Virus record (IMG/VR): IMGVR_UViG_3300037047_000121
Reading direction: 5' to 3' (one strand)
Length of the DNA: 64,000 nucleotides
DNA from: a virus
Shown here: piece after piece, positions 1-52,596 of the stretch
How the letters are laid out: every line of letters starts with the position of its first letter
Numbering within the stretch: the first letter of the stretch is position 1
The notes under the pieces: model-generated
What the model was told of the DNA's origin: nothing
Seen by the model: the letters and a program-made list of their open reading frames with translations, nothing else
Databases searched by the model: none
Position numbers and translations under genes: made by a program

Positions 1-161
1 AGATGCACGTGTGCGTGTACCCCAAGCTGGGGATCCTCTCGGAGACCGAGGTCACGGCGCTCCTGGGTCGCCTCTCGGTCGACTGGGGCGGGCTCGTCAC
101 GGCGACGCAGATGGAAGAGGGCCTGGAGATCACGTTCCACGCGGGACCGAGGAGCTAAGTC

Positions 162-1025: not shown

Positions 1026-1040
1026 GCAAGTAGGTGTGAA

Positions 1041-1325
1041 ATGTCGATGGACGATCAGATTGACTTGGAGGAAGAACGGAGCGCTCATCTCGCAACCCGT
1101 GAGGTTCTGGAGCGATACAAGCGGAAGCTACAGGAGGAGCAGTACACCAGCGCGGGGCTCCAGCTTACGATCGACGCCATCGGCACAGAGGTTGGCTTGT
1201 ACGGCGTAATGAAAAATGGCCACAGGGTCGTTGAAGCCGTCAAGGCGGTCGTCCTCGACCACAACAGGGCACTGAGGGAACTCGAAGAGTGCCAGCGCAA
1301 ACTTCTGCACATGGGGGCACTGTGA
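1041..1325 (+). CDS. hypothetical protein (94 aa)
   Basis: ATG with AGGTG RBS. Confidence 0.6.
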   Translation: MSMDDQIDLEEERSAHLATREVLERYKRKLQEEQYTSAGLQLTIDAIGTEVGLYGVMKNGHRVVEAVKAVVLDHNRALRELEECQRKLLHMGAL

Positions 1326-11316: not shown

Positions 11317-13632
11317 ATGAGTGAACAGCGAAATCAGCTTGAGAGCACCGTTGCAAGGTACAAGAGGGAAGAGCAGGATCTCCTGCGGGAACGGGAGATG
11401 GCTCGGGACATGCCCCTTGCAGCCGACTTGATCCGCAACCGCCTCGTGGAAGTCCAGTGTCGGTTGCAGGAAGCCCGGAACGAACTTGCGGAAAAGGCCA
11501 AACGGGCACGAGTCATGGTCGAGGCCACGGAGCAGGCGGAGGAATACCGCACCCACGCTGCACAAGAGGCCGCCAAAAGGCACGCCCAGTGGTTCATGAC
11601 CTCGATCATCCCCCTGCCATGCAGCAAGGAGGGGGACATCGTCGTCTGGCAGCACAGCCCATGTGGGACGAAAGAATCGACGAACAACCGGGAAAGGCGA
11701 CCCTACGCTTGTCCCAAGTGTGAGCCCCAAGTCGCCCAGTTGCACCGGGAAATCCAAAAGGGAGTCAAGGATGCACTGCAACCATTCGTAGGGGTCGACT
11801 GGTCGAAGAAATCCAATCGGACAGCCCTCACCGAAAAGCTTTTGCAGGGACTCCGTGACCCCCACCAGGAGGACGCGACTGCGCTTCCCCCCATCCATCT
11901 CATGGTCAACAAGGATCTGGTGAACCGTCATCCGGTGCATGGGAGCAACATCAAACGACTGTTCCTGACCGAAGGATCCGACGAGTTCGAGAAAAACCCC
12001 CAAACGATGGCACCGGCGACCTTCGAGGGTGACAGTGCTGAAAATCTGGTGGAGACGGTCATTGGGCTAATTGGCCTAGGGTGCTATGAATTCGCGGCCG
12101 AGTTCGGAGAAATCCCGAAATCCGTGTTTGTCTATGCCCCTGACCAGGGATGTTTCGAGAGGAATCCCTCAAACGTCAGGCTGCATCTGGCCATCGAAAT
12201 CAGCAGCACGGAACCCATGCGCTCCCGTGCAAGCACAGAGGCACAGTTCATCGCGGGACTCCGGGGAATTATCGGATCAGACCCTCCCAACAAAGGAGGC
12301 ACATCCTATCCTTACGATTTCGGTCAGAGTCTGAGCAAAGAGCCCGTGTTGCGGCATGGTCAGTTCACACTCAAGCCGGTGAACCTTTCGTGGGATCTCG
12401 TCAAGGACTATCTGCCCGCTTACCCGGGAGAGCCGTCCGTCCTCCTGCTTCGGCAGCAGACACCGAAACAGGACGAGTCCCGCACTCTGAATGCCCTCCG
12501 GCCGGATGGCACTATGGGCACATGGTCACCGTTCCCGACGGAGGTGGAAATTGGGTACAACTGGAAACCCGCAACCCCCAGGGCAACGGTCCATCTCTTC
12601 CCGTTAGAGAAACTGACGGTCCTGGCGGCGGGCAGCCATCCCGACGAATTCCGGTTCGAGAAACTTTCAGGTGTCTCCGGAACCCTGTTGGAGATCGTAG
12701 GGAGCGTCAGTTTCCAGGCGCAGTCCTCCCAAATGTTGATCACGGAGGTGCTGTGCGCCGTAGGCAGTATCAGGCAGGCGCACTACAAGGTCTGGCAGGA
12801 GCACCCCGCTCAGATCCTCGTGAGCAGCGAGTTCATCCAGGACAAGGACACCGGCGGCGTCCGAGTCTCGATGATCTCCTCCTCCAAGGTCAGGGAAAAC
12901 GGGCAGTACTTCACGCTCGGACAGTTCACGAAATACGTGGAGAACGTCCTCGGCATCAGCCACCCGACAGCCAAAAACCCCTGTGGTGAGATCCCGTCGG
13001 GCACCCATGAGATGGCCAAACAGCCCCCAGGAGAGGCCACCCTCCCACCGGAGCTTGAACCGCAGACACTAACCCTGATCAAAGGGCGCCATACAAACTG
13101 GGTGGCACTGAATTGGGCCTATGAGTACCTCCGTCAGGGTAAAAAGGTGATGCTTTTCTCCCCTGAACAATCCAATGCCACCCTTCTGGATGCCCTGCAA
13201 AGGGTTCATGGCCAGCAGAGACTCTCCGGTTGGAAAGATCTCGTCACTCGGGTGACCCCCGTGTCTGGTGACTACTCAATGGGGAAAGTGCCATCGCCCC
13301 AGGGTGTGGACGCGGTGTTCGTGCTTGACGCAAGTAAAATGCAGCCAAATTCGCGGCTGCTTCCATTCTCGTCTCTCCTTCAGGTGGATGAGATCCTGTT
13401 TGACGGGAAACGGTTTGCACGGGAACACAACGTTCCCGTTGTCATGGCTTATGACATCACACCTCGTGTCCCGTGGGGGATCGAGGGCACTCCCTACCCG
13501 ACACGAATGGAATATTTCCCGGACAACGTCTATATCTACAGGGGTGGAAACTACGCACACTGTAGGAAACGGCGCGCCGGGAAAACCCTGGACATCGCCA
13601 TCGGGGCCTACTTGAAGGACGGTACCGAATGA
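11317..13632 (+). CDS. putative replication protein, primase-like with PriCT-like C-terminal region
   Basis: 771 aa; C-terminal GRHTNWVALNWAYEYLRQG resembles PriCT motif (G-R-N-x-x-L-x-x-A); memory-based assignment. Confidence 0.6.
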   Translation: MSEQRNQLESTVARYKREEQDLLREREMARDMPLAADLIRNRLVEVQCRLQEARNELAEKAKRARVMVEATEQAEEYRTHAAQEAAKRHAQWFMTSIIPLPCSKEGDIVVWQHSPCGTKESTNNRERRPYACPKCEPQVAQLHREIQKGVKDALQPFVGVDWSKKSNRTALTEKLLQGLRDPHQEDATALPPIHLMVNKDLVNRHPVHGSNIKRLFLTEGSDEFEKNPQTMAPATFEGDSAENLVETVIGLIGLGCYEFAAEFGEIPKSVFVYAPDQGCFERNPSNVRLHLAIEISSTEPMRSRASTEAQFIAGLRGIIGSDPPNKGGTSYPYDFGQSLSKEPVLRHGQFTLKPVNLSWDLVKDYLPAYPGEPSVLLLRQQTPKQDESRTLNALRPDGTMGTWSPFPTEVEIGYNWKPATPRATVHLFPLEKLTVLAAGSHPDEFRFEKLSGVSGTLLEIVGSVSFQAQSSQMLITEVLCAVGSIRQAHYKVWQEHPAQILVSSEFIQDKDTGGVRVSMISSSKVRENGQYFTLGQFTKYVENVLGISHPTAKNPCGEIPSGTHEMAKQPPGEATLPPELEPQTLTLIKGRHTNWVALNWAYEYLRQGKKVMLFSPEQSNATLLDALQRVHGQQRLSGWKDLVTRVTPVSGDYSMGKVPSPQGVDAVFVLDASKMQPNSRLLPFSSLLQVDEILFDGKRFAREHNVPVVMAYDITPRVPWGIEGTPYPTRMEYFPDNVYIYRGGNYAHCRKRRAGKTLDIAIGAYLKDGTE

Positions 13633-13874
13633 CCGAGGCACAGGAAAATCTCGCCCTGGCACGACAGGATGCCGAGCAGGACGTGGCACGGCTCAAGGCC
13701 CGACTCGTAGCGACTGAGCAGGAACTGGCCCTCTTGGACGAACAGGTCACCCCGATCGCGGTGGAGCTACTGGAAAAACATTTCGGTCATGGTCGACTGC
13801 TTCTTCAGACGGCCTATGAAAACCTCAGACTGCTGACAACGGCAACGGAGGCATGTTCAGACACATGCGATTAG
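13629..13874 (+). CDS. hypothetical coiled-coil protein
   Basis: ATGA overlap. Confidence 0.5.
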   Translation: MTEAQENLALARQDAEQDVARLKARLVATEQELALLDEQVTPIAVELLEKHFGHGRLLLQTAYENLRLLTTATEACSDTCD

Positions 13875-14074
13875 TCAGTGCCTCGGGGGAGCCCATCCCC
13901 CGGCACATCCTGGAACCTATTGCTGGCCTGTGGGATTGCCCTTACTGCACACGACGGAATGGACCCCGCACCCGTCAGTGCCCAGGGTGTGGCTATCAAC
14001 GGACACTAGAGGACGTGCATCGAGCCGCATCCGTTCGATTACGGGGGGTGAGAAATCCATGTACACACAAGTGA
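13865..14074 (+). CDS. zinc-ribbon protein (CPYC...CPGC)
   Basis: small ORF with two CxxC pairs. Confidence 0.45.
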   Translation: MRLVSASGEPIPRHILEPIAGLWDCPYCTRRNGPRTRQCPGCGYQRTLEDVHRAASVRLRGVRNPCTHK

Positions 14075-15152: not shown

Positions 15153-15566
15153 ATGAGCAAAACGATCCCACAGCCTGATGCCAAAAGGTACCGCGTCGTC
15201 CGAGTCACCCATCTTGACGGGGAACGCGAGTATTTCCTCCAGTTCAAAACTGGATTTCTGGGGCGCTGGAAATTCACATGTGGCTATCACCGGGGCGCTC
15301 CGGGTTACTTCAACTACCAGTTCTGCTCTGCGGGGAACCCCTACTATCACGTCGAGCATACGATCCCGGAGATCGAGGAGGAGCACCGCTCTCCTACCCT
15401 CTCGGCATATGACGTTGCCTCTTCCGTGGATCTACTCAAACCGGATCCCCGTCCGATCGACCTGACCCTCGACGTTCAGAAAGTCTGGGACGCCCTGGTG
15501 CGCCACCGGGAGAAAGGGTTTTCCCCCGCTGACCCCTACCCGAGTGTAGACGAGGCCCTCGGATGA
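15153..15566 (+). CDS. hypothetical protein (137 aa)
   Basis: ATG 1 nt after upstream stop. Confidence 0.55.
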   Translation: MSKTIPQPDAKRYRVVRVTHLDGEREYFLQFKTGFLGRWKFTCGYHRGAPGYFNYQFCSAGNPYYHVEHTIPEIEEEHRSPTLSAYDVASSVDLLKPDPRPIDLTLDVQKVWDALVRHREKGFSPADPYPSVDEALG

Positions 15567-15856
15567 AAGAGGTCTGGGCAGCTTTTGTCGGCATGTGCTT
15601 GGCGGGGGGAGTGTACCTGATAACCCAAGCCTACTCCTGTGGTCACCGAAATGGGGTCTACGAGGATCGATGTGTAAAAGCCTGCCAACATGAAGGGTAT
15701 GAAAGTGGGTCAGCCAACTTCGACGAGGATGACAAGTTCAATGGCTGCGATTGCAGATCCAACCACGACATCCCCATTGATCGTGTTCCAACCCCGGAGT
15801 GGAAATTCCCGGCTGACGCTGGAAGAATTCCTGTCGAGAGAGGAACTGTGGACTAG
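15563..15856 (+). CDS. Cys-rich small protein with N-terminal hydrophobic helix
   Basis: ATGA overlap; overlaps next gene in another frame. Confidence 0.45.
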   Translation: MKEVWAAFVGMCLAGGVYLITQAYSCGHRNGVYEDRCVKACQHEGYESGSANFDEDDKFNGCDCRSNHDIPIDRVPTPEWKFPADAGRIPVERGTVD

Positions 15857-16196
15857 GTGCGTAGGCGCCCGAACCAGGGAACCCGCTCAGGGCCTGATCG
15901 TCAAAACGGATGATCTCCCCCCAGCCGTGTGCATCTTGGGTGAAGACGGGGACTCCCACTGGTGCAGTCCGAGTCAACTAGAGTTCGACCTGAGTCACCC
16001 GGCAACGGCTGGAGTACTCTGGGGTATGCTCGTCGCTTGTCATCCAGGTCGCTGCCTTGAGGTCGAGTGGGACGGTTCCCCTGACGGTCAATACACCGTC
16101 AGTGTGCAGCATGAAAAAGATCGCTACCTGGATCGGCACACAGGCAAGATGTTTGGCCATGCGATCTCCAACGCCCTCCTGGGGATCGAGGAATGA
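15783..16196 (+). CDS. hypothetical protein, paralog of 17135..17473; start unclear (GTG 15783 or frameshift from upstream gene)
   Basis: LEEFLSREELWTRCVGAR and ATAGVLWGML align with the 17135 protein; no ATG near the homologous N-terminus. Confidence 0.35.
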   Translation: MFQPRSGNSRLTLEEFLSREELWTRCVGARTREPAQGLIVKTDDLPPAVCILGEDGDSHWCSPSQLEFDLSHPATAGVLWGMLVACHPGRCLEVEWDGSPDGQYTVSVQHEKDRYLDRHTGKMFGHAISNALLGIEE

Positions 16197-19469: not shown

Positions 19470-19691
19470 ATGAACGTTTACACAGTGACCGTTAGATATC
19501 GGTTTCTTGAGTTCGGAGAAGAGCACTTCGCGGTAGTTGCGGAGGACGAGCAGGCGGCCGAATCCAGTGTCCTTCAGGATGTGGGGGAAAACTACCACCC
19601 CCCCAAGGACACGATCATGGTCAAGAAAATCTGTGCTGCATCCTCTGACAGTGTGCCCGCGGTAACCTACTGTGGTGGTCACGTGGAGTAA
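19470..19691 (+). CDS. small protein ending YCGGHVE, paralog of previous gene
   Basis: tandem paralog. Confidence 0.5.
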   Translation: MNVYTVTVRYRFLEFGEEHFAVVAEDEQAAESSVLQDVGENYHPPKDTIMVKKICAASSDSVPAVTYCGGHVE

Positions 19692-19693
19692 AA

Positions 19694-20326
19694 ATGATCG
19701 TTATCACCCTTGCCCGGAAACCCCTCGCGGAGTCCACTGTCGCTCGCAATGTTCTGCACTATGGGACTGGCTCCCTCAACATCGAGGCCAGCAGGATCGG
19801 CGCCCCGTTCCTGTCCGCCGGGGGGAACAATTTTGAGGCATGGCGAGCGGGTGAGAGTCGCGCAGACCGGCCAGCACAACACGGGACGACAACCTCGAAA
19901 GTCCCGAGCGGCCGTTGGCCGACGAATTTCATCCTCGAACATTTCCCGGGGTGCCGCTGCCAAGGCTTGAAACGAGTCCCTGCCAATCAGTCCACCAGAA
20001 TCGGGTCCGGCAAGGGCTCTGCCGAGACGAGTGGGCACATCTTTGGTCATTTCGGGGGGACAGTGAAACCGTCAACCGCGGGGCCAGACGGGCGCGAAAC
20101 GGTCGAAAACTGGATCTGCGCGCCGGGGTGTCCAGTCGCTCAACTGGACGAAGAGTCGATTGCTGGCGGAATGCACGGGGCTGGAACGAAAAGGGAACCC
20201 GGGCTCTCCGTCCAGACAAACGATGGATGCCTCTTCGGTCTGAGCAACTACGAGGGCAACGGGGTACGGTTCGGAGACGCCGGAGGCGCCTCTCGGTTTT
20301 TCAAGCAGTTCCAGTCATGCAAGTGA
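19694..20326 (+). CDS. member 1 of tandem triplicated protein family (210 aa)
   Basis: shared N-terminus MIVITLARKPL..NVL.YGTG.LNI, central RWPTNFILEH, C-terminal AARFFKQ. Confidence 0.6.
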   Translation: MIVITLARKPLAESTVARNVLHYGTGSLNIEASRIGAPFLSAGGNNFEAWRAGESRADRPAQHGTTTSKVPSGRWPTNFILEHFPGCRCQGLKRVPANQSTRIGSGKGSAETSGHIFGHFGGTVKPSTAGPDGRETVENWICAPGCPVAQLDEESIAGGMHGAGTKREPGLSVQTNDGCLFGLSNYEGNGVRFGDAGGASRFFKQFQSCK

Positions 20327-20796
20327 TCACCGTTGCGAGAAAACCGATCGACCAACCGACGATCACCGAAAATGTTCTACACTGGAACACAGGCGCCTTG
20401 AACATCGACGGATGTCGTGTCCCCTGTGAAGGTGGAAGCCCTACCGCCCGCATGAGAGAGAAACTCAACCCAGTAGACAACCTGAGCTATGGGAAAAGGG
20501 GGACGTTCCGAGCAACCTATCAAGTCCCGAAACCCGGCGAGACGCTCGGCAGGTTCCCATCCAATTTCATCCTTGAGCACACAGCGGATTGCACACCGGA
20601 GGTCTGTAGTTCGGAGTGCCCGGTGTTCGCTCTGGGGGTCCAGAGCGGAGTCACTCAATCTGTCGTGACAGAGAAAAATGGCGACAACTTGCCTGGGGTG
20701 ACGTATACACTTGGGAACAGGAACAACATCCGAGTAACCGGGTTCCTCGACAAAGGAACTGCCGCGCGGTTTTTCAAACAGGTGAGAAGAGACTGA
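20326..20796 (+). CDS. member 2 of tandem triplicated protein family (156 aa)
   Basis: ATG overlapping upstream stop; same three motifs. Confidence 0.6.
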   Translation: MTVARKPIDQPTITENVLHWNTGALNIDGCRVPCEGGSPTARMREKLNPVDNLSYGKRGTFRATYQVPKPGETLGRFPSNFILEHTADCTPEVCSSECPVFALGVQSGVTQSVVTEKNGDNLPGVTYTLGNRNNIRVTGFLDKGTAARFFKQVRRD

Positions 20797-20799
20797 GCC

Positions 20800-21045
20800 A
20801 TGCCCTTCTACGACTACCAGTGTCAAAAGTGTGGTCATATCTTCGAGGTCTTCCAACACATGGACGACCCCGACCCCCGATGCCCAAGCACCGGCGACAT
20901 CCACGTCCCGGACTGGGATTTTGAGCAAGAGGGTGAGCCGCCCGTGTGCGGCGGACACAGTAGACGGCTCATCTCCCAGACGAACTTCGTTCTGAAGGGC
21001 GACGGGTGGGCTGCTGACGGATACTCCTCCGGAGGCAAACGATGA
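20800..21045 (+). CDS. FmdB-family zinc-ribbon protein
   Basis: N-terminal MPFYDYQCQKCGHIFE matches the FmdB zinc-ribbon signature. Confidence 0.6.
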   Translation: MPFYDYQCQKCGHIFEVFQHMDDPDPRCPSTGDIHVPDWDFEQEGEPPVCGGHSRRLISQTNFVLKGDGWAADGYSSGGKR

Positions 21046-21665
21046 TCGTCATCACAATGGCCCGAAAACCACTCTCAGAGCCTACCGTCGCAGCGAACGT
21101 GACCCTATATGGTACTGGTGCCCTGAACATCGACGGATGTCGGGTCGGTACAAACCCCGGCTACAGCTACCATGCCGATCGGAATGGCACCACTTTCCAC
21201 GGTGAGGTCGGAGATCGGAAATTTCAGTCGGCTGAGAAACGGGGATCGGAACTCATCCAGTCAACCAAAGGTCGTTGGCCTGCCAATTTCATCCTCGAAC
21301 ATCTTCCCGTTTGCATTTTTCTCGGCACACAAGCGACGCCCGGCTACTCCATCAATCGATGGTCAGATGGAATGAAACCATTTGGGGGTGGCGCAGGACA
21401 TACCTACACCCAGGACACACAGGCAAATCTATCGAGTGAGATGTGGGATTGTACCCCCGGTTGTCCTGTGTCAGATCTGGATGCTCAAAGCGGGGATCGG
21501 GTAGCGGGGGGCGCCAGGAAACCAATACACGGGCCTGCTGGTCAGATTTTCATGCACGGTGGGCCTTGTGAGTCCTACGCGGATCAGGGGACGGCGGCAC
21601 GGTTCTTCACACAGGTCAACCGAAAAACATATCGGAGTGCTCCTCCACCGCCAGAAGGCACGTAG
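21042..21665 (+). CDS. member 3 of tandem triplicated protein family (207 aa)
   Basis: ATGA overlap; same three motifs. Confidence 0.6.
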   Translation: MIVITMARKPLSEPTVAANVTLYGTGALNIDGCRVGTNPGYSYHADRNGTTFHGEVGDRKFQSAEKRGSELIQSTKGRWPANFILEHLPVCIFLGTQATPGYSINRWSDGMKPFGGGAGHTYTQDTQANLSSEMWDCTPGCPVSDLDAQSGDRVAGGARKPIHGPAGQIFMHGGPCESYADQGTAARFFTQVNRKTYRSAPPPPEGT

Positions 21666-22963: not shown

Positions 22964-24981
22964 GGAAGGCTCTCGAACATCCCCTTGATGTGGCCGAGCA
23001 CGTTCGGGATAGACATGTGTGCAATCAGCGAGAGCGGGATGGTCTTCCACTCCAGTTTGGTGTCCGTTTCTGGATCCAACCAGATAAACATGATAGAGCC
23101 ATCGCGCGTCATGCTGCACTCTAGTTTATACGCTAGATCGTGGAACGTCGCCACAAACCCACTGGCGAATTCCTCCGTCACGAACGACGTGTGCTGTTCT
23201 TTCGCAAACAGTGACACGACCTTCAACAGATAGGCTCGCACGAAACCCATCAGGGTCGGATCCCCGACCTCCGCCATCAAAGCTGCCCTCACGTACCGTT
23301 GTGCAACCCTGGAAACCGTCTTCATGTCGCGCTCCTGTCCCAAACCGTTGAGCGATGCCACTTTCGGATGGCCATAAAGGGCTTTTTCCTTCGCCCCCAG
23401 AGCCCCGATATCCCGCTTGTACCAGCCGTCCCCCTCCCACACGAGATCCTTGCCCTGGAGAACGCGTCTGACCACTTCCTCGTCCACGATGCGACGAACC
23501 CCGGCACCCTCAATGATCTGAGTCGGCTTACCAGAAGCCTCCATGTACCAACCGGGCTTGCGCAACAGGGAGACCGCCTGTTCAACTACCGCACGCTTGG
23601 CCTGAGACGACCCGTCACTACCCATCAGCCCTAGTTTGTTACCAAATCGCGTTCGCTTGTAGGCCAAGAAAGCATCGATGCTGTTGTCTCCGTCGATGTC
23701 ATTGAGCCAGAAGATGTCGTACTTGGTCAACATCTCGGAGAGACTGCCGACGTGTGTCCCGATGGCACCATAAGAGGTGTGGTAAATGTCCCACATCTCT
23801 TGCTGCTGGTCGATGTCGAGATCCCGCGGAAAACCCTCTACCCAGGTCGCCCGAGGAAGATTGACCCGAGCTAGAACGGAACGCAGTGACTCCATCTGGT
23901 CTCTGGTCATGTCGTTTCCCATCACCAAATAGGCCATCGCTTCCGCAAACCCCTCCGCTGGATGCTTCGTGCCGTAATCGGAAACGGCGGGGACACGCCC
24001 CGAAGTCAGCCAGTCCGAAAATCGAGCCCTCTCTGGTTCTCGCATCTCTTTGAACCAGTACCGATGTGCCATCTCATGGGTAATCACCTCCGGAGTACTC
24101 TTGTCCGGATACATATAGACGTAGATGCGATCCTTCGATATATCGTATCGAGCCGCGACCCCTAATCCAGGACCATACTGATTTACCCCCGCCAAACTCT
24201 TAGGCTTGACGAAGATCTCACCCCGCCAGACTTGACCCAAACCCTTTTGTCGCAGCCGATGATAAGCCTCCTTGAAGGCTCGGGTGTACCAGTCTACGAG
24301 CTTGGGTTTGACCTCTGGGTCCTCTATGATGACCTTCACGCCGAACAGGTCGAACTCAGTGTCGATCTCCTCCAGGGCTGGCGGATCCAACTGCACAACC
24401 TTCTCCGCTTCCTGGTAAAGAAAACTCAGCAGATCGTCAAATGGTTTGACCAGTTTTTTCAGATCCTTGCGAAATCCGGACTTCAGGTACTCCTCCGACT
24501 TTTTCTGAGCCTCTAACCACCGTCGTCCGATCCTCTCTAGTGCCGGATATTTTTGGAACAGCGCCTCGTAGTACTGATCATTCGTAGACACATGTGACAA
24601 CTCATCTTCACTCAGGAAAGGAGCTTTCCCTGTTGCCTTTTCGACATCCCGCGCTTTGTCCTGATATTCGCCCAGATAAAACCGAGAGTCTCCTTCAACC
24701 CCAGAGGATCTAAACTCGAACCACTGGACCTTTTTCTCTACAGCTGATAGCAGATCAAGAAACTTCTTGCCCTCATCTGACCACCACTCATGCACATACA
24801 CCCCTTGGTGATGAAACTGAACCTGCTCCCGCAATCGAGACAAAAACACCCGAAACTGTTTCAGGATTGAGTCGTATTGGAGAGCACTTTGGGGCTTGGC
24901 ATTTTGGATCAGATGCATCCACCCACGTCGGATCCCATCAAGCCACTGACGGTCTAGCAGTTTTGCTTGCTTTCTAGTCAT
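22960..24981 (-). CDS. HEXXH zinc-metalloprotease-like protein (673 aa)
   Basis: VITHEMAHRYWF zincin motif; operonic with ligase gene. Confidence 0.65.
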   Translation of the reverse strand: MTRKQAKLLDRQWLDGIRRGWMHLIQNAKPQSALQYDSILKQFRVFLSRLREQVQFHHQGVYVHEWWSDEGKKFLDLLSAVEKKVQWFEFRSSGVEGDSRFYLGEYQDKARDVEKATGKAPFLSEDELSHVSTNDQYYEALFQKYPALERIGRRWLEAQKKSEEYLKSGFRKDLKKLVKPFDDLLSFLYQEAEKVVQLDPPALEEIDTEFDLFGVKVIIEDPEVKPKLVDWYTRAFKEAYHRLRQKGLGQVWRGEIFVKPKSLAGVNQYGPGLGVAARYDISKDRIYVYMYPDKSTPEVITHEMAHRYWFKEMREPERARFSDWLTSGRVPAVSDYGTKHPAEGFAEAMAYLVMGNDMTRDQMESLRSVLARVNLPRATWVEGFPRDLDIDQQQEMWDIYHTSYGAIGTHVGSLSEMLTKYDIFWLNDIDGDNSIDAFLAYKRTRFGNKLGLMGSDGSSQAKRAVVEQAVSLLRKPGWYMEASGKPTQIIEGAGVRRIVDEEVVRRVLQGKDLVWEGDGWYKRDIGALGAKEKALYGHPKVASLNGLGQERDMKTVSRVAQRYVRAALMAEVGDPTLMGFVRAYLLKVVSLFAKEQHTSFVTEEFASGFVATFHDLAYKLECSMTRDGSIMFIWLDPETDTKLEWKTIPLSLIAHMSIPNVLGHIKGMFESLP

Positions 24982-26636
24982 GTCCGGTTCCCGAAGGATG
25001 CCAAATATTTGTGAGCCACCCGTTTGCGGATGTTCTTGATCCCCCGCAGTTCGGGATGCACCCCACCCCAGAGGGACTCCTCGGAGATGGCCTTCTGGAA
25101 TTCCAGATTGATGAACTTGCCAAACACGCCAGTACGCAAGTTCTTGACGACGATGCCCTCAGCCGTCCCGGCTCCGAACGAGGAAAACCGATCCGCGAGC
25201 TTCGGCAGATCCTCGGGGGCCACCGTCCCCTTGAACACTAGCGGAACGAGCGGCGCACCTACCATCTGGCACACGGCCTCTTTCTCACCCCGAGTCAGCC
25301 ACTTGCCGGTACCCTGCCCCTGCCGATACGGAGGACGATCCTCACCCTCCATGATCTCGTACACAACCGTCATGTCCGGCCAACCGGACTCCGAGTAGGG
25401 GACGTTATCATAAGACACCGTGTGCTGGATCCGAAGGGACTCGCAAAAGAAGGTGTATCCGCCGTACAAGATGACCACCGGATGGCCATCGACCTTCTCC
25501 TCGATGACCACCTCACCCTTGAACAAACGCTCCATCTCGGAGTCCTTCAGGTAATCTTTACCCCGAATCCTCAACCCGTACCGATCAATGTCAGCATTCC
25601 CAACAACAACAGTCTCCTGTTTCGTTCGGGGGTCTACATTCCGAGCGATCGGAATCCGCCGGACACCCGTAATCTGCTTGTAACCACGAACGAAGTCGAT
25701 GACCTCGAACGGTTCCCCAGCGTCCACGGCCGTCCTGACGGAGCCAAACCGATGAGCGAAACTGATCTCCATCTCGTTGTCTTTCCGACCGGCCCAGAAA
25801 AGTTTGTACTTGCGAGGAAGACTCTCCTCTAGGAACTCAAGCACCTCGCGGTAAGCGCCCTCCTCGTCGGGACGAGCCGAGAACTGCATCATCCCCGTGC
25901 GACTCACCCAGATCTGGTCCCGAGAGTCCAGTTCCGCCGGGATCCCCAAGTCATCGAGCTTCTTGAGCAGCATCTGCAACCTCTCAAGACGCTCCAGTTC
26001 ATCGTGCATCTTGCGACGCAAGGCTGGATCATCCTCTTTCTGAGCCCTCCAGTCGAGTTCCAGGATGCGGTGCTTGAGGCTTGCCATGTTTGCATACCTG
26101 TTGCTGCCTGTATCAACGACCCAGGCTTGATCCGAGTCAAACAGAACGATCTCGTCGATCCGACTACCCTTCGACACGATGCTGCCAAACCCCCGCGCAT
26201 ACCGAGCACCCGGCGACTCTTTCCGAAGATGATCCGCCAGCAACTCCAACGCTGTCGATTTGTTATCCACCCGACGAACCCCCTTCGACTCCAGTAGCTT
26301 CGGGATCCGGTTCAACTCTTTGGCGAACGCTTTCAGCCCACTCCGCCACTCGTCCGGAGCCATCGCAGTCCGAGTCAAAAGATGCCCATGCTCAGCTAAT
26401 CCAGCCTTGCACACATACCATGGGTCACCAGACACTGGATCATCCCGATCCAAAGCAGGGGTGAGAGAACAATGCACCCACACTGGTGCCCCACCCTTGA
26501 ATTCATACCCCAGCATCTCAACCCGCACGTACCCTCGATCCCTCCACTCAGGCTCAGAGCCAAACGTAGATGCCCACCTCTGAACCAAACGATAAAAAGC
26601 ATCGAGCGCTTTTTGCTTTGTAACACCAAGTCCCAT
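24978..26636 (-). CDS. ATP-dependent RNA/DNA ligase-family nucleotidyltransferase with N-terminal extension
   Basis: motif I EEKVDGHPV (KxDG), motif IV AEGIVVKN, downstream GKFIN; 552 aa. Confidence 0.65.
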   Translation of the reverse strand: MGLGVTKQKALDAFYRLVQRWASTFGSEPEWRDRGYVRVEMLGYEFKGGAPVWVHCSLTPALDRDDPVSGDPWYVCKAGLAEHGHLLTRTAMAPDEWRSGLKAFAKELNRIPKLLESKGVRRVDNKSTALELLADHLRKESPGARYARGFGSIVSKGSRIDEIVLFDSDQAWVVDTGSNRYANMASLKHRILELDWRAQKEDDPALRRKMHDELERLERLQMLLKKLDDLGIPAELDSRDQIWVSRTGMMQFSARPDEEGAYREVLEFLEESLPRKYKLFWAGRKDNEMEISFAHRFGSVRTAVDAGEPFEVIDFVRGYKQITGVRRIPIARNVDPRTKQETVVVGNADIDRYGLRIRGKDYLKDSEMERLFKGEVVIEEKVDGHPVVILYGGYTFFCESLRIQHTVSYDNVPYSESGWPDMTVVYEIMEGEDRPPYRQGQGTGKWLTRGEKEAVCQMVGAPLVPLVFKGTVAPEDLPKLADRFSSFGAGTAEGIVVKNLRTGVFGKFINLEFQKAISEESLWGGVHPELRGIKNIRKRVAHKYLASFGNRT

Positions 26637-28626: not shown

Positions 28627-29499
28627 ATGGAGCAAATACTCTACTCACGGTCGGATGATGGGTTGTTGCCTGTACGGATCCGGGAGGAGTCGGGACAGCG
28701 GAGGTATAGCTTGGAGGGGCCTGGTGGGGTGGTGGTGTATCCCTCGGCTCGGCAGTTGTTGTGTGCGCTTACGGGGCACCCTGAGGCGCGGCATTGGCCG
28801 TTTGATCGGTATTTCCGGCAGGGTCGGTATGCACCGAAGGGTGTGAGTGCTGACTTTCCGTTGTTGGAGATGGTGGGTCCTGGTGGTTGGGCGCTGGGTC
28901 GGCCGGAGGTTTTGGCGACGAGTGGTGGTCCTCGGTGGATTCGTCGGGACTCGTTGGGGATCGACCTTCAGGCTCGGGGCAAAGAGGTTGCGAAGCTGTT
29001 GTTTCATGGTTTTGGGTCGATGATTCACTCTGCTGGGTATGACCCGGATGATGTTCTGCAGGAGGTGTACAAGGGGATTCTGATTCGGAACTCGGGGTCG
29101 TGCCCATTTGATGCTCGCAAGGCGTCGTTTGGTCACTATGTCCACATGGTGTGTCGGTGCGTACTGGCGAACTATCACCGGAAGAGTCAGCGGACACGCT
29201 CTATGGAGCAGTCTGGCATCCCTGGCTGGGATGAGAATGGCGACAAGGGGATGATAGACGCGGGTGAGACGGGTGAGCTAGTGGCTGCTGCAGGTTTGGA
29301 GGACGAAGCTGTACTGGAAGACTTCATGTCGGCCTTGGAGGATTCCCCCTTGCGGGGCATGGCTCTCAGGGTCTTGCCGTTGGTTCGGGATGGGTATGAG
29401 AGATCTGAGATTGCCGCTCAGCTTGGGGTGGCGAAGCCTACGGTCTCACGGGCGCTGACGTACATCCGGGATCAGTTCCGGCGGTGGTATGCGAACTAG
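28627..29499 (+). CDS. phage-encoded sigma-70-family (ECF-like) sigma factor
   Basis: region-2-like FGHYVHMVCRCVLANYHRK and region-4 HTH ERSEIAAQLGVAKPTVSRALTYIRDQFRRW. Confidence 0.55.
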   Translation: MEQILYSRSDDGLLPVRIREESGQRRYSLEGPGGVVVYPSARQLLCALTGHPEARHWPFDRYFRQGRYAPKGVSADFPLLEMVGPGGWALGRPEVLATSGGPRWIRRDSLGIDLQARGKEVAKLLFHGFGSMIHSAGYDPDDVLQEVYKGILIRNSGSCPFDARKASFGHYVHMVCRCVLANYHRKSQRTRSMEQSGIPGWDENGDKGMIDAGETGELVAAAGLEDEAVLEDFMSALEDSPLRGMALRVLPLVRDGYERSEIAAQLGVAKPTVSRALTYIRDQFRRWYAN

Positions 29500-46987: not shown

Positions 46988-47929
46988 TTAGAATCCGAGG
47001 GACTCCTTCTGATAATCCTCGACTGCTTTCAGGATCCGTCCGACCAACGGATGGCGCACGACATCATCGCCGGTGAACGTGTGGACGTGGATCCCCTCTA
47101 CGTTCCCCAATGCACGCGCAATGTGCGACAGACCCTCAGTGCCGGGACGCAAGTCCGACTGGGATAGGTCTCCCGTTACGATGCATTTCGACCCGTGCCC
47201 CAAACGAGTCAGTAGCATGACCAACTGGGGCCATGTGCAGTTCTGAGCCTCGTCCAAAATGATGAATGCATCCTCTAGCGTTCGACCGCGCATATACGCG
47301 AGGGGGGCGATCTCGATCAGCCCTTTTTTCTGGAATGCCTCCGTAGCCGCTTTCCCCAAAAAACAATGAAGCCCATCAAACAGCGGCTGCAAATAAGGAT
47401 GCACCTTCTCCGCGAAAGTACCTGGAAGAAACCCCAAACGCTCACCCGCTTCAATGGCCGGACGGGTCAGGATAATCCGCTGCACCCGACCTTGTTGGAA
47501 TGCCTGTACGGCACACGAAACGGCAATAAACGTCTTCCCGGTACCGGCCGGGCCGAGGCCGAAAATGATGTCGTGCTGGTCAATAGCCTCCAGGTACTGG
47601 GCCTGCCCCGGAGTCTTTGGTGAGACGGCTGGGTGACTCTTGGTACCTTGGGGACGGGATCTTTGCATGTGTGACCTCACAACTTTGGGTGAAAGCGTCT
47701 GCCCCTTCAGGACACGTTGGAGCGCAAACTGAACCAGTTCCTCCGCGGACACTAAATCCTGCTCGGTGTCTGCATCGAGTAAAACTTTCCGTGCATGCAG
47801 CCTGATCTGGATACCAGGGAGTTGCAGGGCTGGCAGATAATCCTGGAGAACGGTAGAGTTAGGAAGTTTGATGGATTTGTAATAGGCTTTGCGGCTCAAA
47901 ACTCCTCCTTCCCATAGAGACCAGAACAT
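46988..47929 (-). CDS. phoH: PhoH-like ATPase
   Basis: Walker A GPAGTGKT plus conserved PhoH segments (IILTRPAIEAGERLGFLPG, IVTGDLSQSD). Confidence 0.75.
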   Translation of the reverse strand: MFWSLWEGGVLSRKAYYKSIKLPNSTVLQDYLPALQLPGIQIRLHARKVLLDADTEQDLVSAEELVQFALQRVLKGQTLSPKVVRSHMQRSRPQGTKSHPAVSPKTPGQAQYLEAIDQHDIIFGLGPAGTGKTFIAVSCAVQAFQQGRVQRIILTRPAIEAGERLGFLPGTFAEKVHPYLQPLFDGLHCFLGKAATEAFQKKGLIEIAPLAYMRGRTLEDAFIILDEAQNCTWPQLVMLLTRLGHGSKCIVTGDLSQSDLRPGTEGLSHIARALGNVEGIHVHTFTGDDVVRHPLVGRILKAVEDYQKESLGF

Positions 47930-47952: not shown

Positions 47953-48831
47953 ATGCGTAGGGCGTTTGTTTTCGATATGGAGACCGGAGATCCGGATGAT
48001 TTTTTCACGTTGGCATTTCTCTGCACACATCCAGATGTTGCACTAAAAGCGGTTACTGTTACCCCGGGCACTCCCCATCAGGTAGGCGTGGTTCACTACT
48101 GTCTGGAACGCCTGGGGCTCCAGATCCCTGTGGGGGCTTTCAACCTGAGTCACGGGGGGGGAGACAAAACGTGCGTGTCCCCGTGGCACTACAACACGTT
48201 CGGCAACATCCCCCCTAGGACGGACGCCCTCCCAGGCTGGCGTGTGCTAGAGGGGCACCTGAACCCCGACACGACGCTTGTGACGGGGGCACCGCTCAAG
48301 AACGTAGGCAAACTCCTATCAGAACGTCCGGATATCAAGTTGGGAGACATCGTTGTCCAGGGTGGGTTCGCTGGGGAGGGTGTAGTTCCGCCGGAACGTC
48401 AACTCCCCAAGTTCAGAGGGAAACGTACCCGCCCGACCTACAATCTGAACGGGGATCCGAAAAGCGCACTGCGGGTGATTGCGTCTACCCAATTCACGCG
48501 TCGACGTTTCGTCTCCAAGAACGTCTGCCACGGAGTCGTGTATGACCAGGAGATGCATGCACGTGTGATGCAAGTGCAGCACCCGCACCCAGGTCTGAAA
48601 CTCATCCAGGAAGGGATGGACAAATATCTCCGGAAACATCCTGAGGGGAAAAAGTTTCATGACCCCCTTGCAGCGTGCTGTGCCATCGACCCGGAGATCG
48701 GTCAGTGGTCAGAGGTGGAACTATTTCGAGAGGGAGGGGAATGGGGCGCCCGCTTGTGTCCCGGATCGGGAGTGGAGATCATCACCGGGTATGACCATGA
48801 GAGGTTCTTGCATGTGTTACTGAGGACTTGA
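47953..48831 (+). CDS. inosine-uridine-preferring nucleoside hydrolase-family protein
   Basis: N-terminal VFDMETGDPDDFFTLAFL matches the IU_nuc_hydro aspartate cluster (DxDxxxDD). Confidence 0.65.
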   Translation: MRRAFVFDMETGDPDDFFTLAFLCTHPDVALKAVTVTPGTPHQVGVVHYCLERLGLQIPVGAFNLSHGGGDKTCVSPWHYNTFGNIPPRTDALPGWRVLEGHLNPDTTLVTGAPLKNVGKLLSERPDIKLGDIVVQGGFAGEGVVPPERQLPKFRGKRTRPTYNLNGDPKSALRVIASTQFTRRRFVSKNVCHGVVYDQEMHARVMQVQHPHPGLKLIQEGMDKYLRKHPEGKKFHDPLAACCAIDPEIGQWSEVELFREGGEWGARLCPGSGVEIITGYDHERFLHVLLRT

Positions 48832-48844
48832 GGTTTCACTCAAA

Positions 48845-48889
48845 CGCGGGGTTTCAACGGTCTGCTGAAAACTGAAACCCCGCTTTTTT
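48845..48889 (+). terminator. rho-independent terminator (11-bp perfect stem + T6)
   Basis: gcggggtttca-N17-tgaaaccccgc-tttttt between convergent genes; overlaps the last codons of the minus-strand gene. Confidence 0.6.
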
Positions 48890-50524
48890 CTTAAGCTCTT
48901 CAGCGAAATCCTGCGGGGTTTTTTCTGTTTTCGGGTGCTCGTCCTTGTATCTCTTGAAAAGTTTCAAGGCACGTTCTTTCAAGGTCCCTTTTTCGGATTT
49001 CTCTTTTTGCTTTTTCTGCTTGCTGTTGTTCTTATGGATGTCCTCGCGGTGTTTCGACGTCACCTGATTCCATCCCCTAGTCATCCAGTCATTGATCATT
49101 TCATGATGGGCATTAATCCGAGCTTGGGTTATTTGATCAGTGATGCGACGAGTGCCGTTAGCCTTATCCTCCTCGTCTTCCTTTCTGATTTCCGACTCAA
49201 TCCGGTCTTTGAGTCTTTTTTCGGTGCGGCGGTAAACTTGGCTCCACTCTTGGTGTCCCCACTCCTGAAGATCCGGAGGCACCTTTTCCTCATAGACTAA
49301 GTCTACCGCCGAGTCATACCACTCTCTGGGAAAATCTATGGGGTTTGCCCTAGCGTGGTATTCCTGAACCCCGAGGTCTTTTGGCCCGAACTTCGGTACC
49401 TTTGGATCTGGTTTATGCTTCTGTCCAGATTTTTTCTCCATTGTCATGGCTTCATGCTGGAGGATCGGGACCAGATGTTTCCGAGTCTCGGGGAACTCAT
49501 GTGCCAGCCGGATGATTTCCTCCCTGAGGACGGAAGCGTTTTTGCCCCGCTGGGTCTTTTTATGATACTTGTCTTTGCGTTTCTTGATCTCATCGGGAAG
49601 GGCAATCGGTTTGCCCTGGAAGTCTTCCCGGTATACACCCGGTAGCTCATCCGCCCGGTCGAGCATCTCTTTCATGGGCATGTCGACCTGGATGACGTTC
49701 ATCGTTCGGGACGGGTCAATCGTCAGAAGTGCCGCCCACCTGTGATGACCATCCAGGATGTGACCGTCACTGGAGATGACAATCTGATCCCCGATGCTTG
49801 GGAACTTTCCTTTCAGGTGAGCATCGGCCATCCCAAACGTTTTGCCCGCTTTGATCTCACTCTGTGTTGCTTTCAGTTGTCCTACGGGAATCTTTTTAGG
49901 CTCGATTTTGACACCCTCAGACTTGAAAGTATCCAGCATCTGTTTCAAAATTGTTCGGTCATCATCCGGATCCGCTCCGGCTTCAACCGCGGCACGACCT
50001 TTCGCACGGGTACCCTCGTCCGGAGTGCCGTCCTTGTTCGTGGCTTTCAGCATCTGTTTGACGGACAGATCTCCCGGGATCTGGGGCATCTTATCGCGGG
50101 ACAATCCCAGGTTCCCCTGGCAGACAGGAGGAGACAGTTTACAAACGTCAGCGGATTTATCGACCCCCTCAATAATCTTTTGAGCAATGTTGATGGCCTG
50201 ATCGATATCATCCCCCACAACGTCAAGGTGATACTCATTGAGTCGGTCCTTGACCTCGGGGGGAATTTTTTTGGCCTTCGCTTTGGCCTTCTCGACTACT
50301 GACGTGCTGGGTGTTTTCCCGTCAGATTTCTCCTTTTGGGATTTCTCTTTTGGTTTTGTTTCCACCACCTGATGGCGTTTGGGATCCGCTTGCGGGTGCT
50401 CCTTCAAATACTCCCGCAGTGCATTTTGACTGGGGAAATCTTTGGCTCGTTTCAGAATGGGCATCAGGTGCCGACGGGTGGCCGGTACCTCTTGCGCCAG
50501 CTTGAGTAGATCGTCTCTCAACAT
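48854..50524 (-). CDS. ParB-like nuclease-domain protein with two copies of a conserved N-terminal-type peptide
   Basis: DGHILDGHHRWAALL (ParB/Srx fold); MLRDDLLKLAQEVPATRRHLMPILK repeated at residue about 330 and at the N-terminus of 50916..51758. Confidence 0.6.
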   Translation of the reverse strand: MLRDDLLKLAQEVPATRRHLMPILKRAKDFPSQNALREYLKEHPQADPKRHQVVETKPKEKSQKEKSDGKTPSTSVVEKAKAKAKKIPPEVKDRLNEYHLDVVGDDIDQAINIAQKIIEGVDKSADVCKLSPPVCQGNLGLSRDKMPQIPGDLSVKQMLKATNKDGTPDEGTRAKGRAAVEAGADPDDDRTILKQMLDTFKSEGVKIEPKKIPVGQLKATQSEIKAGKTFGMADAHLKGKFPSIGDQIVISSDGHILDGHHRWAALLTIDPSRTMNVIQVDMPMKEMLDRADELPGVYREDFQGKPIALPDEIKKRKDKYHKKTQRGKNASVLREEIIRLAHEFPETRKHLVPILQHEAMTMEKKSGQKHKPDPKVPKFGPKDLGVQEYHARANPIDFPREWYDSAVDLVYEEKVPPDLQEWGHQEWSQVYRRTEKRLKDRIESEIRKEDEEDKANGTRRITDQITQARINAHHEMINDWMTRGWNQVTSKHREDIHKNNSKQKKQKEKSEKGTLKERALKLFKRYKDEHPKTEKTPQDFAEELKKKAGFQFSADR

Positions 50525-50536
50525 GGAGTCCCTCCG

Positions 50537-50965
50537 TTAGTCCCGAAGCTGGGCAAGGATTTTCTGAGCCATACTGGAAACTGCGATTTGCACCGCACGT
50601 TCCAACTTGAAAGGTCCAACCAGGACTGAGGGTTCCCCACCGGACAGAGACTGCTGGTAGGCAGCACCCAACACGCCATTGGGCTCGAACCCCAGGTAGA
50701 CATAGTCGTACCCGATATCCGCTGGGATCAGAAGTTTCGCGGAAGCAAACCCGTTTGGTTCTACTGAGGCCCCTTTGAATTTTTTTGCCACCATTTCGAG
50801 TACACTCATGCACCATGCTTGCATGGCATCCCCGAGATTCGTATTGTTTGAGATTGCAAGATTCACATTGCCTCCTAGCCTTTTCGGATCCTGTTTGAGG
50901 AAATCTATAACCGGCCTACCGATTTTTCTGGACATGTACCAGAAAAACGGCGTACCCAGTTTCAT
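50537..50965 (-). CDS. hypothetical protein (142 aa or shorter)
   Basis: ORF; start may be the internal ATG. Confidence 0.45.
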   Translation of the reverse strand: MKLGTPFFWYMSRKIGRPVIDFLKQDPKRLGGNVNLAISNNTNLGDAMQAWCMSVLEMVAKKFKGASVEPNGFASAKLLIPADIGYDYVYLGFEPNGVLGAAYQQSLSGGEPSVLVGPFKLERAVQIAVSSMAQKILAQLRD

Positions 50966-51758
50966 TCGATTTCACCTCAACCCGGCTCCCCGCCCCCGCT
51001 GCGGATTCCAATTTCTTGGCCATCAGGGATGCGTGATCACTGAGCATTCGGCTCTCTGAGTTTTTGAATGTCAGATGCAGTTTCAGGTCACCACCTGGAT
51101 GAGTTGATATCTCAGGGGTGAATTTGCGCTTGGTGGACATCTCTTTGAGCGCCGGGGCTAGACTGGTAGCAGCCTGCTGGACCTCCTCCGGAAGTTTGGC
51201 AAACTCCTGTTTGTTTCTAAACATAGCCGGGGCTTTGGTTTTCGGGACGTCCTGTTTGACTCCTTTGGAAGGCTTCGGTTTGACCACCACCGTAACAACG
51301 TTTTTGTCCCCCGAAGTCACCTCGAAGTCAAACTGAGATTCCCTTTCCCCTAAAGCTTTCTGTGCTTCCTGCAACACATCTTTTTCGAGTTTACGCTGTG
51401 CTGCTGATCCACTGGGCTTTTTCTTGTACGTGTCACTCGTAATCGCTTGAAGCTCGAAAGATCCGTCCTCCCGCTGGGTCAGGTCAAGTAGCTGACGACC
51501 TTTGCCAAGTGCCCGACTGATGGTGTCATATTTCTGATGGAGCATTTGGAGCCCAGAGTCTGCAGTCTCTTTTTGATGCTGCTCCTGGGTTTTTTGCACC
51601 GTATGATTGTGCGGATCTGCCCCGGGATGTTCCTGGAGGTATTTTTTGCGTGCCTCCTCACTCGGATGCTCCATCCCAGTTTTCAACAGAGGAACGAGGT
51701 ACCGTCGAGTTGCAGGAACCGCGTGTGCCAAACGTAGGATTTCGTCGCGCAGAATCAT
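50916..51758 (-). CDS. protein with shared N-terminal peptide (280 aa)
   Basis: N-terminus MILRDEILRLAHAVPATRRYLVPLLK...YLQEHPGADP matches repeats in 48854..50524. Confidence 0.55.
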   Translation of the reverse strand: MILRDEILRLAHAVPATRRYLVPLLKTGMEHPSEEARKKYLQEHPGADPHNHTVQKTQEQHQKETADSGLQMLHQKYDTISRALGKGRQLLDLTQREDGSFELQAITSDTYKKKPSGSAAQRKLEKDVLQEAQKALGERESQFDFEVTSGDKNVVTVVVKPKPSKGVKQDVPKTKAPAMFRNKQEFAKLPEEVQQAATSLAPALKEMSTKRKFTPEISTHPGGDLKLHLTFKNSESRMLSDHASLMAKKLESAAGAGSRVEVKSNETGYAVFLVHVQKNR

Positions 51759-51840
51759 ACCAGCACCTCCTGTCCTACCGGAGCCTATAGACCAAAAACC
51801 AAGCGCGGTTGGTATGGTTCAGACGACAGGAGGATAGGAC

Positions 51841-52596
51841 ATGAAATTGAGGCTAGGGGATTTCGGTTATCTCCAGATGTGGTTCGGATCACACCAGAGC
51901 ATCACTCCTCATCTGGTAGACATCCGGCTTATGCTCTATTGGCCGTATCGGGTAGTCCGTAAATTCCATCTCGGGGAAAAAGGCATCTACCTGAACCCCG
52001 GAGAAATTCTGGGTCGTCTGCCCAATGGGGACTTGCACTACGAAAGGTTTGTGCTGGAGAACAGGTGGCTCCAGGGTGCCCTGGCTGACGGTTTGGTTGA
52101 GCCCCTGTACCGTGTGCCGAGCCGAAAAAACTTGACCTGGGGTGCTTTTCGTGGGTGGGTGCGGCGTTGGCCCAGCATCAAAAAGCAGAGCACCCCGAAT
52201 ACCAACTGGCCATCGTCCACACGTTCCCTCGAGGAGCGCAACGAAACCCAGAAAGATCCTGTCCCGGATGCGTACCCATACACACCAGGGACGGATTCTG
52301 GGGACGCGACGAGGATTTATTTCGGGGGGGCGATCTGCGCTGAACCGGACCCGCCAGTGCTGCACGAGCTACTGGAAAAGATGCGGGAAAACCCCGAGGA
52401 GTTCTCGCCTGATCCCAGACATGGGTACCCGGACTATTTCAACTGGACGGTCTTGTCGAACGACTACTGGATGCGGAAACAGCCAGTAGCGGAGTCCGAG
52501 GATGAGACGGGGATGGAGCTTGAGGTAGGTCCATTCGCAGCGGAGTGTCCGGAACCTCCTCCGGTTCCGGACATTACCTCTCCGGAGAGTGCTTAG
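51841..52596 (+). CDS. hypothetical protein (251 aa)
   Basis: ATG with CAGGAGGATAGG RBS; convergent with the MVP gene. Confidence 0.55.
   Translation: MKLRLGDFGYLQMWFGSHQSITPHLVDIRLMLYWPYRVVRKFHLGEKGIYLNPGEILGRLPNGDLHYERFVLENRWLQGALADGLVEPLYRVPSRKNLTWGAFRGWVRRWPSIKKQSTPNTNWPSSTRSLEERNETQKDPVPDAYPYTPGTDSGDATRIYFGGAICAEPDPPVLHELLEKMRENPEEFSPDPRHGYPDYFNWTVLSNDYWMRKQPVAESEDETGMELEVGPFAAECPEPPPVPDITSPESA

Follow-up and report, generated by a model that had tools for sequence, protein, structure and literature searches.

A small protein module, carried at the ends of otherwise unrelated proteins of uncultured and mostly huge phages, probably acts as a docking tag of some kind. Its hairpin part occurs three times in a 64,000-nucleotide stretch of viral DNA (IMG/VR record IMGVR_UViG_3300037047_000121; the whole stretch is hereafter termed the window), within two neighbouring minus-strand genes that encode protein A (48854..50524; 556 aa) and protein B (50916..51758; 280 aa). 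The module consists of a hairpin part, termed M1, with the pattern LR[DE][DE][LI][LI][KR]LA...P[AE]TR[RK][HY]L[MV]P[IL]L, and a downstream part, termed M2, with the pattern YL[KQ]EHPxADPxxH. According to a structural model, M1 (~26 aa, helix-Pro-helix) and M2 together form an undescribed two-part mini-domain of ~57 aa. We are highly confident of the descriptive claims made below, which concern the existence of the family, its restriction to phages, the terminal placement and predicted fold of the module, the diversity of its cargo, selection on the peptide and the likeness of copies within a genome. From these we infer a docking role and a capsid destination; the complete proposal, in which the tag sends phage proteins into the capsid for delivery, is put forward tentatively.

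Proteins A and B share a two-part terminal module

A regular-expression scan of all six frames identified three copies of M1 and no further copy in the whole window. As a first-pass annotation of the window had reported, they lie at the N-terminus of A (50441..50524, aa 1-28, MLRDDLLKLAQEVPATRRHLMPILKRAK; all features in this section are on the minus strand), inside A (49445..49528, aa 333-360, LREEIIRLAHEFPETRKHLVPILQHEAM) and at the N-terminus of B (51672..51758, aa 1-29, MILRDEILRLAHAVPATRRYLVPLLKTGM), the first of them forming the extreme N-terminal helix-Pro-helix hairpin of A. The three copies score 37, 50 and 46 bits, respectively, with an M1 profile built mostly from sequences of other phages, the internal window copy being outside its training set, and their single-sequence E-values range from 1e-13 to 1e-17. 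M2, which comprises a third helix and an HPxADxxxH loop, is found in A at 50351..50446 (aa 27-58, AKDFPSQNALREYLKEHPQADPKRHQVVETKP; M2 profile 51.5 bits) and in B at 51582..51677 (aa 28-59, GMEHPSEEARKKYLQEHPGADPHNHTVQKTQE; 64 bits), with the loop itself at 50372..50398 and 51606..51632 (aa 43-51 in both proteins). The first-pass annotation had also placed a YLKEHP(Q/G)ADP segment behind each copy of the peptide. Intact M2 does follow both N-terminal copies; the internal copy, however, is followed only by a marginal M2-like remnant 165 aa downstream (48920..48955, A aa 524-535, KRYKDEHPKTEK; 4.7 bits, single-sequence E 0.0014).

Composition-adjusted BLASTP confines the similarity between A and B to the module, with one alignment of 69 aa at 51% identity (E 2e-18) and another of 43 aa at 47% (E 5e-8). 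Uncorrected BLASTP had also made the C-terminal half of A appear to be a paralogue of B (23% over 226 aa), a Lys/Glu artefact that was gone after composition adjustment. Between pairs of window copies, 13-16 of 24 residues are identical, and 10-13 of these are specified by different codons. Because identical residues mostly differ in codon, what is conserved is a peptide and not a DNA repeat, and this synonymous divergence rules out a repeat maintained at the RNA or DNA level.

Behind its N-terminal module, A continues with a linker (50258..50350, aa 59-89) that is Lys/Glu/Ser-rich and, as read off the sequence, flexible. There follow a cargo domain (49556..50257, aa 90-323), made up of a helical region and a ParB/Srx-fold domain (ATQSEI at aa 219, DGHHR at aa 258), the second M1 and, behind it, a Lys/Glu-rich extension of 196 aa (48857..49444, aa 361-556). 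The cargo part of B (50919..51581, aa 60-280) is an orphan sequence with no match in Pfam, PHROG or NCBIfam and no tblastn match across the fetched loci, where the extension of A likewise found no tblastn match. As whole proteins, A and B are both Lys-rich, with pI values of 9.3-9.5.

The module defines a family with a predicted helical fold

A word-index protein search with the three window copies returned a single relative, P0001, and the family emerged from an exhaustive HMMER search of 1.84 billion cluster representatives (50% identity) with a profile of the window copies and one relative. This yielded 975 cluster representatives at E<=1e-3, of which 188 reach E<=1e-10, in proteins of 63-1281 aa. 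The first-pass annotation had proposed looking for the peptide in related genomes. The element is more than a peptide, being a family of two-part mini-domains. When the word-index search was run with 84 sequences, it returned mostly fragments of <110 aa.

The consensus of an 84-sequence alignment is xxLRxxxIRLAxxxPELRxHLLPLLKxAMEFxTxEALKKYLKEHPxADxxxHxVKK. One Ala and two His residues (His43 and His51 in A numbering) are invariant, and beside these two His the Pro and Ala of the HPxADxxxH loop of M2 are nearly so. From the same alignment, AlphaFold2 predicts M1M2 to be a compact unit (pLDDT 92.9) with helices at residues 2-12, 14-26 and 33-42 and a small beta bridge, the M2 helix being packed on the M1 hairpin. 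Searches of Pfam-A (2025), NCBIfam r20, PHROGs v4 and PDB folds gave no significant match to the module, nor did PDB sequences (E>=0.15).

These properties bear on the possibility that the module is a small basic helical binding domain that tethers enzymes to DNA, RNA or a host factor, with packaging as a by-product of genome binding. The module of A is basic (aa 1-57, pI 9.9), several of the cargo domains target nucleic acids or are DNA mimics (ParB/Srx, pentapeptide repeats), and M2 faintly resembles helix-extension-helix motifs, with sub-threshold Pfam matches to Ish1 and BRK (E 0.1-0.3). In addition, the two invariant His and the nearly invariant, Asp-containing loop could, judging from the conservation pattern, make a metal or ligand site. 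However, strict terminal placement and genome-specific flavours would be unexpected for a generic nucleic-acid binder, M1 is used without M2 in one complete phage genome (see below), and significant structural support is absent. We therefore regard a binding domain of this kind as a rather improbable explanation.

The module is terminal, tethered and separable

The position of the module was determined in the best 150 family proteins, with the M1 and M2 halves mapped separately. M1M2 stands at the N-terminus in 102 cases and M1 alone in 12, while M1 alone is found within 6 residues of the C-terminus in 17 cases and internally in 30; M2 alone is internal in 48. M1 usually begins 1-4 residues past the start codon in the family (0-2 codons past it in the fetched loci), and 'LR' stands at residue 3 or 4 in 64/97 N-terminal cases. 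In 97 members, the 30 aa behind the module contain 81% disorder-promoting residues, compared with 66% in the remaining protein.

The two parts are separable, as the family includes M1-only proteins, M2-only proteins with 2-3 M2, and proteins that have 60-150 aa inserted between M1 and M2. Separability raises the possibility that M1/M2 is a docking code for an intracellular assembly other than the capsid, such as a multi-enzyme body, a scaffolded complex or a condensate, in which M1 hairpins would pair as four-helix bundles or dock M2 in trans and multi-tag proteins would act as cross-linkers. Such an assembly would account for the tags at both ends in the majority architecture of the A family (see below) and for the Lys/Gly/Glu-rich linkers behind the module. 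The predicted packing of the M2 helix on M1 also implies that M1 lacking M2 should expose a binding face, and one 381-kb contig combines an array of six M1-only genes and one M1M2 gene (L049) with a 1650-aa protein that bears two M2-only modules (L018). Nevertheless, in LR745208.1, an uncultured phage of 485 kb, 11 proteins carry M1 alone, and no M2 was detected in this phage. Docking of M1 to M2 in trans is accordingly not general, and complementation as a general mechanism is ruled out by this genome. The idea also overlaps with capsid delivery, since such a body could itself be packaged, and on balance we think a non-capsid assembly unlikely.

Two other peptides seem, from their sequence, to be different forms of the tag's first half. 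A 363-kb phage (L001, 7390-16199) has a different short terminal peptide, L[IM]xRxV[VT]AR[FV], at one or the other terminus of the products of neighbouring genes (a Zn-peptidase-like protein, two J-domain proteins and a RelA/SpoT-like protein), and also directly before M2. In P0199, the closest homologue of A, AQRLACRYVNA occupies the place where the N-terminal M1 would stand.

The module is nearly confined to phages and recurs on unrelated proteins of one genome

The module is almost confined to viral contigs, many of them of 200-530 kb. A degenerate DNA pattern for YLKEHPxADxxxH, run over IMG/VR and 596 Gb of bacterial and archaeal genomes, gave 37 matches in IMG/VR, many of which lie on 200-450-kb contigs, and 4 in the prokaryotic genomes. 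Of these four, only one scores clearly with the module profile, and it shares a 1009-aa open reading frame with an IMG/VR phage contig. Within the deposited phage genome collection, LR745208.1 is the sole carrier.

In the genome of LR745208.1, assembled from ten fetched pieces, M1 (M[T]TLRSKLIRLAHENPALRPHLLPLLKEA) stands at the start of 11 dispersed genes. Identity among these M1 parts averages 78%, yet 54% of the codons for identical residues are synonymously different. The remainders of the 11 proteins show no mutual BLASTP similarity, and Pfam returned nothing for the 10 of 11 that were searched. Tagged genes also occur in tandem arrays of M1-headed genes (7 in L049, 4 in L036 and 3 in L029). 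Selection therefore operates on the peptide, as the codons for identical residues mostly differ. M1 copies are more alike within a genome than between genomes (identity 0.73 vs 0.51; 0/2000 permutations), and the N- and C-terminal M1 of the same protein are slightly more alike than copies across orthologues (0.491 vs 0.460; 1/5000 permutations).

We considered whether the shared peptide is nothing special, being the product of paralogy, recent duplication or a DNA-level repeat, or else a Tat/Sec-type export signal. A and B are neighbours, tagged genes are often in tandem arrays, and the window copies contain T-R-R-x-L, with TRRHLM recalling the twin-arginine motif. Similarity nevertheless ends at the module, the 11 proteins of LR745208.1 have nothing in common beyond the tag, and more than half of the identical-residue codons within their tag differ, all of which makes such an origin scarcely credible. 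A Tat/Sec signal was rejected outright, as the RR is followed by charged residues and no hydrophobic h-region, and the family consensus has a single Arg (PELRxHLLPLL).

Protein A is a doubly tagged member of a divergent ParB/sulfiredoxin family

The central domain of A has the alpha+beta fold of the ParB/Srx class, and LDGHHR (aa 256-261), a DGxHR-type active-site motif with Arg, is invariant in 81 homologues. No Pfam family matched A at E<=0.1, ParB-type models included, and its match among PHROGs is phrog_2859 (6e-20), a family of unknown function. A is therefore a divergent member of the ParB/sulfiredoxin superfamily by fold and motif, not by profile.

At E<=1e-5, A has 239 homologues, typically of 320-460 aa. 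The two commonest architectures, which account for 49/118, consist of M1M2, a linker, the ParB/Srx domain and, at the C-terminus or close to it, a second M1. P0199, which is the closest homologue (72% identical, 347 aa, on a 528-kb contig), ends 3 residues past its second M1. Because homologues such as this one end at or near the second M1, the 'internal' M1 of the window is the C-terminal tag of the A family, and the A of the window has acquired its 196-aa extension behind it. An extension behind the late M1 is missing from most homologues, although 12 others carry extensions of 75-423 aa.

The A central domain shares homology with part of gp69, a 4515-aa protein of phage JC1, and also with a small Ackermannviridae protein that carries a structural annotation. 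JC1 gp69 was found by mass spectrometry in CsCl-purified virions with 51 unique peptides (PMC9144972).

The untagged 109-aa gene between B and A (50537..50866, minus strand), which is called as a gene on the source contig, is kept beside A-family genes elsewhere: its product is 48% identical to one on the contig of P0199 (L072, 9670-9999) and 39% identical to one in L075 (11063-11407). It has no family match; for the ParB/Srx-like A, it may serve as partner, inhibitor or chaperone. The contig of P0199 also carries a Cas12f1-like_TNB (TnpB-like) gene at 12-1283 (minus strand).

The tag may direct cargo into the capsid

Taken together, the presence of one terminal, tethered module on many unrelated proteins per genome, the selection on its peptide and the genome-specific variants argue for a docking tag. 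In the mechanism that we propose, the M1 hairpin, either alone or extended by M2 to a three-helix mini-domain, would be an address tag of uncultured, mostly huge phages. It would sit at the extreme N-terminus, and often also at the C-terminus, of unrelated proteins, separated from them by a flexible linker, and would bind one common phage-encoded partner, most likely some part of the procapsid during its assembly (scaffold or core, portal, or the inner face of the shell). Tagged proteins would then be packaged in the head and delivered with the DNA into the next host. On this reading, the A of the window is a ParB/Srx-type enzyme with a tag on either side and a C-terminal extension, and its B is an orphan cargo.

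The first-pass annotation had likened the shared terminal peptide on different proteins to a targeting or virion-incorporation signal, and comparative data strongly support a signal of this type. There are hundreds of unrelated carriers, and terminal placement, the flexible linker, conservation at the peptide level and likeness within genomes all agree with it, as does an identifiable cargo that is typical of virion-delivered effectors. Among 141 carriers, Pfam gave few matches, and these are of many kinds (WGR, pentapeptide repeats, MORN, ChaB, BRK, RelA_SpoT and several DUFs), and array-borne tagged genes encode pentapeptide repeats, ART-PolyVal and DUF2958. The M2-bearing genes of L001 include one for a RelA/SpoT-like protein, and a neighbour there is, as read from its sequence, Zn-peptidase-like. 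ADP-ribosyltransferase (ART), RelA/SpoT and ParB (DdrB-type) domains are among the listed hub domain types of the packaged and injected 'polyvalent proteins' of phages and conjugative elements (Iyer, Burroughs, Anand, de Souza and Aravind 2017; PMC5512222). We favour the capsid as destination because the cargo overlaps with that of polyvalent proteins, because JC1 gp69 is virion-borne, and because the capsid targeting sequence (CTS) of phage T4 provides a precedent.

A known system of similar design is the T4 CTS, a single N-terminal tag common to the divergent proteins IPI, IPII, IPIII and Alt. Its carriers are basic and non-essential and include the ADP-ribosyltransferase Alt and the anti-restriction protein IPI, and in T4-related phages the set of internal proteins with CTS-like sequences varies (PMC9026906). 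Like the CTS, the tag described here stands on many cargoes, ART- and nuclease-type domains included, in gene arrays, and a short N-terminal peptide on divergent proteins of one phage is found in both the window and LR745208.1. The CTS, however, has ~10 residues, is strictly N-terminal and is cut off by the prohead protease at (L/I)xE, whereas the present tag has ~26 aa (57 with M2) and a predicted fold, and is also found C-terminally or between domains; for it, packaging is an expectation and not an observation. The consensus xxLRxxxIRLAxxxPELRxHLLPLLK bears no resemblance to the T4 sequence MKTYQEFIAE. Another analogue is the C-terminal helix-turn-helix coat-binding domain of scaffolding proteins (P22 gp8; Pa193 gp24, PDB 9b40_G).

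The first-pass annotation had pointed to encapsulin cargo peptides as a parallel. The peptides that target enzymes to encapsulins and bacterial microcompartments are short and terminal, are helical in microcompartments, are joined by flexible linkers to diverse enzymes and address one shell protein. These systems are cellular, have the shell gene in the same operon and use sequences unrelated to the tag; in the present case, by contrast, the only nearby shell candidate, a vault-protein homologue, does not co-occur with the tag. Polyvalent proteins share with the tagged set their ART, RelA/SpoT and ParB-type domains, a Zn-peptidase-like protein (in L001) and a presumed delivery with the DNA. 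They differ in uniting many domains in one giant polypeptide, whereas here the tagged proteins are mostly small and separate. A has one identifiable enzymatic domain and B none, compared with the 2-15 fused effector domains of that class; the kinship lies in the domain repertoire and in the homology of A to part of JC1 gp69.

Several observations weigh against delivery by the capsid. The tag is carried by no cultured phage, its only deposited carrier being LR745208.1, so that the location of its cargo is deduced, and it exceeds the T4 sequence in length and degree of structure and is also C-terminal and internal. No conserved cleavage motif, whether of the (L/I)xE type or another at a fixed distance, was found behind the tag, where the residue following LLPLLK varies. 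Among the neighbours, PHROG and Pfam scans revealed no head genes beside the tagged arrays in L036, L049 and L029, and the only structural match in the window, a virion structural protein (58019..59245, minus strand; phrog_1645, 4.5e-81), is 6 kb away. Moreover, most cargo domains are orphans, such that the 'effector' character rests on a minority, and shared ancestry or gene conversion could partly explain the similarity within genomes.

A more elaborate possibility, to which we give little weight, is that M1 and M2 make up a hitherto unrecognised modular sorting code of the 'plug and socket' kind, in which genome-specific hairpins would address dozens of effectors per phage to one receptor. 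That receptor would reside in the capsid or in a phage-built compartment, and multi-tag proteins would assemble an ejectable body. If this were true, the injected or compartment proteome of uncultured huge phages could be read directly from sequence.

While terminal targeting tags on phage proteins are known, the size of this one, its predicted fold, its two-part build and its use at both termini set it apart from the T4 sequence, and literature searches found no such tag described in huge or jumbo phages. Nearly all huge phages are uncultured and most of their genes are orphans, so a tag that marks a functionally linked set of proteins would open up part of their biology from sequence. Should it mark proteins that are packaged and injected, one profile search would list candidate effectors of host takeover and anti-defence for hundreds of huge phages, and ~1000 tagged protein clusters are already available. 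Loading such capsids with foreign proteins could be a further use of the tag, one to which the T4 CTS has already been put.

A link between the tag and the neighbouring vault-protein homologue is not supported

The window encodes a homologue of the major vault protein (MVP; 52593..55211, minus strand; 872 aa) with Pfam matches to MVP_shoulder (PF11978, 6.2e-21) and Vault_3 (PF17795, 2.9e-8). The first-pass annotation had described A and B as next to the MVP gene and had suggested that the peptide might load them into the MVP shell. The genes are indeed nearby, 0.8-2 kb away and on the same strand, but they are not directly adjacent: an opposite-strand open reading frame (51841..52596, plus strand) lies between MVP and B, and the 109-aa gene between B and A.

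Eukaryotic vaults take up cargo through a dedicated MVP-interaction domain, the INT domain of vPARP, which is much larger than the tag and C-terminal. As a module that steers cargo into an MVP shell it is a relevant comparison only through the adjacent MVP gene, and it is not known to resemble the tag. Together with the proximity of A and B to MVP on a common strand, it is what could suggest loading into the vault shell. The comparative data speak against this. All of the 12 other viral MVP loci (12/12; 38-64% identical MVP) are tag-free, with no M1 or M2 within 10 kb. Conversely, tblastn (E<=1) did not find MVP in the complete 485-kb LR745208.1 or in any fetched tag-bearing locus, and there is no MVP within 10 kb of the closest A homologues (72% and 64% identity). 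In addition to the opposite-strand gene that separates MVP from B, the contrast between ~1000 tag-bearing protein clusters and the rarity of phage MVP makes a general dependence implausible. Loading of A and B into an MVP shell is therefore highly improbable; MVP is a neighbour only, and its membership in the tag system is not supported. This removes a tempting but unsupported link to the enigmatic vault-protein homologue of phages.

Viral MVPs have been reported only in one 2023 preprint (10.1101/2023.11.10.566534). The twelve further MVP-encoding IMG/VR contigs (L002-L013) include some of 175-318 kb. On one of them (L003, 13320-15954, plus strand), a 60%-identical MVP is followed downstream by two adjacent genes that share the start MKLLREYI..LL; one of the two (15430-15954) is also a paralogue, over a longer stretch, of a third gene (13320-13946), so the shared start is not obviously a tag.

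Other features of the window

A scan for promoters and terminators across 48-56 kb gave a site count not above that of shuffled sequence. The G+C content across the A/B region (window 48000..52000) is 0.52-0.53, compared with 0.57-0.62 in its surroundings. This region is flanked by genes for PhoH (46988..47929, minus strand) and a nucleoside hydrolase (47953..48831, plus strand) on one side and, beyond MVP, for an RNB+dsRBD ribonuclease (55777..57528, minus strand) and an RIIB-like protein (62475..63404, minus strand) on the other. Farther away, the window encodes an RNA-ligase domain protein (24978..26636, minus strand) and an extracytoplasmic function (ECF)-type sigma factor (28627..29499, plus strand). 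Three tandem paralogous genes on the plus strand (19649-20323, 19855-20793 and 21018-21662) are 32-40% mutually identical, and these paralogues have a 39% identical homologue in LR745208.1 (28100-28711).

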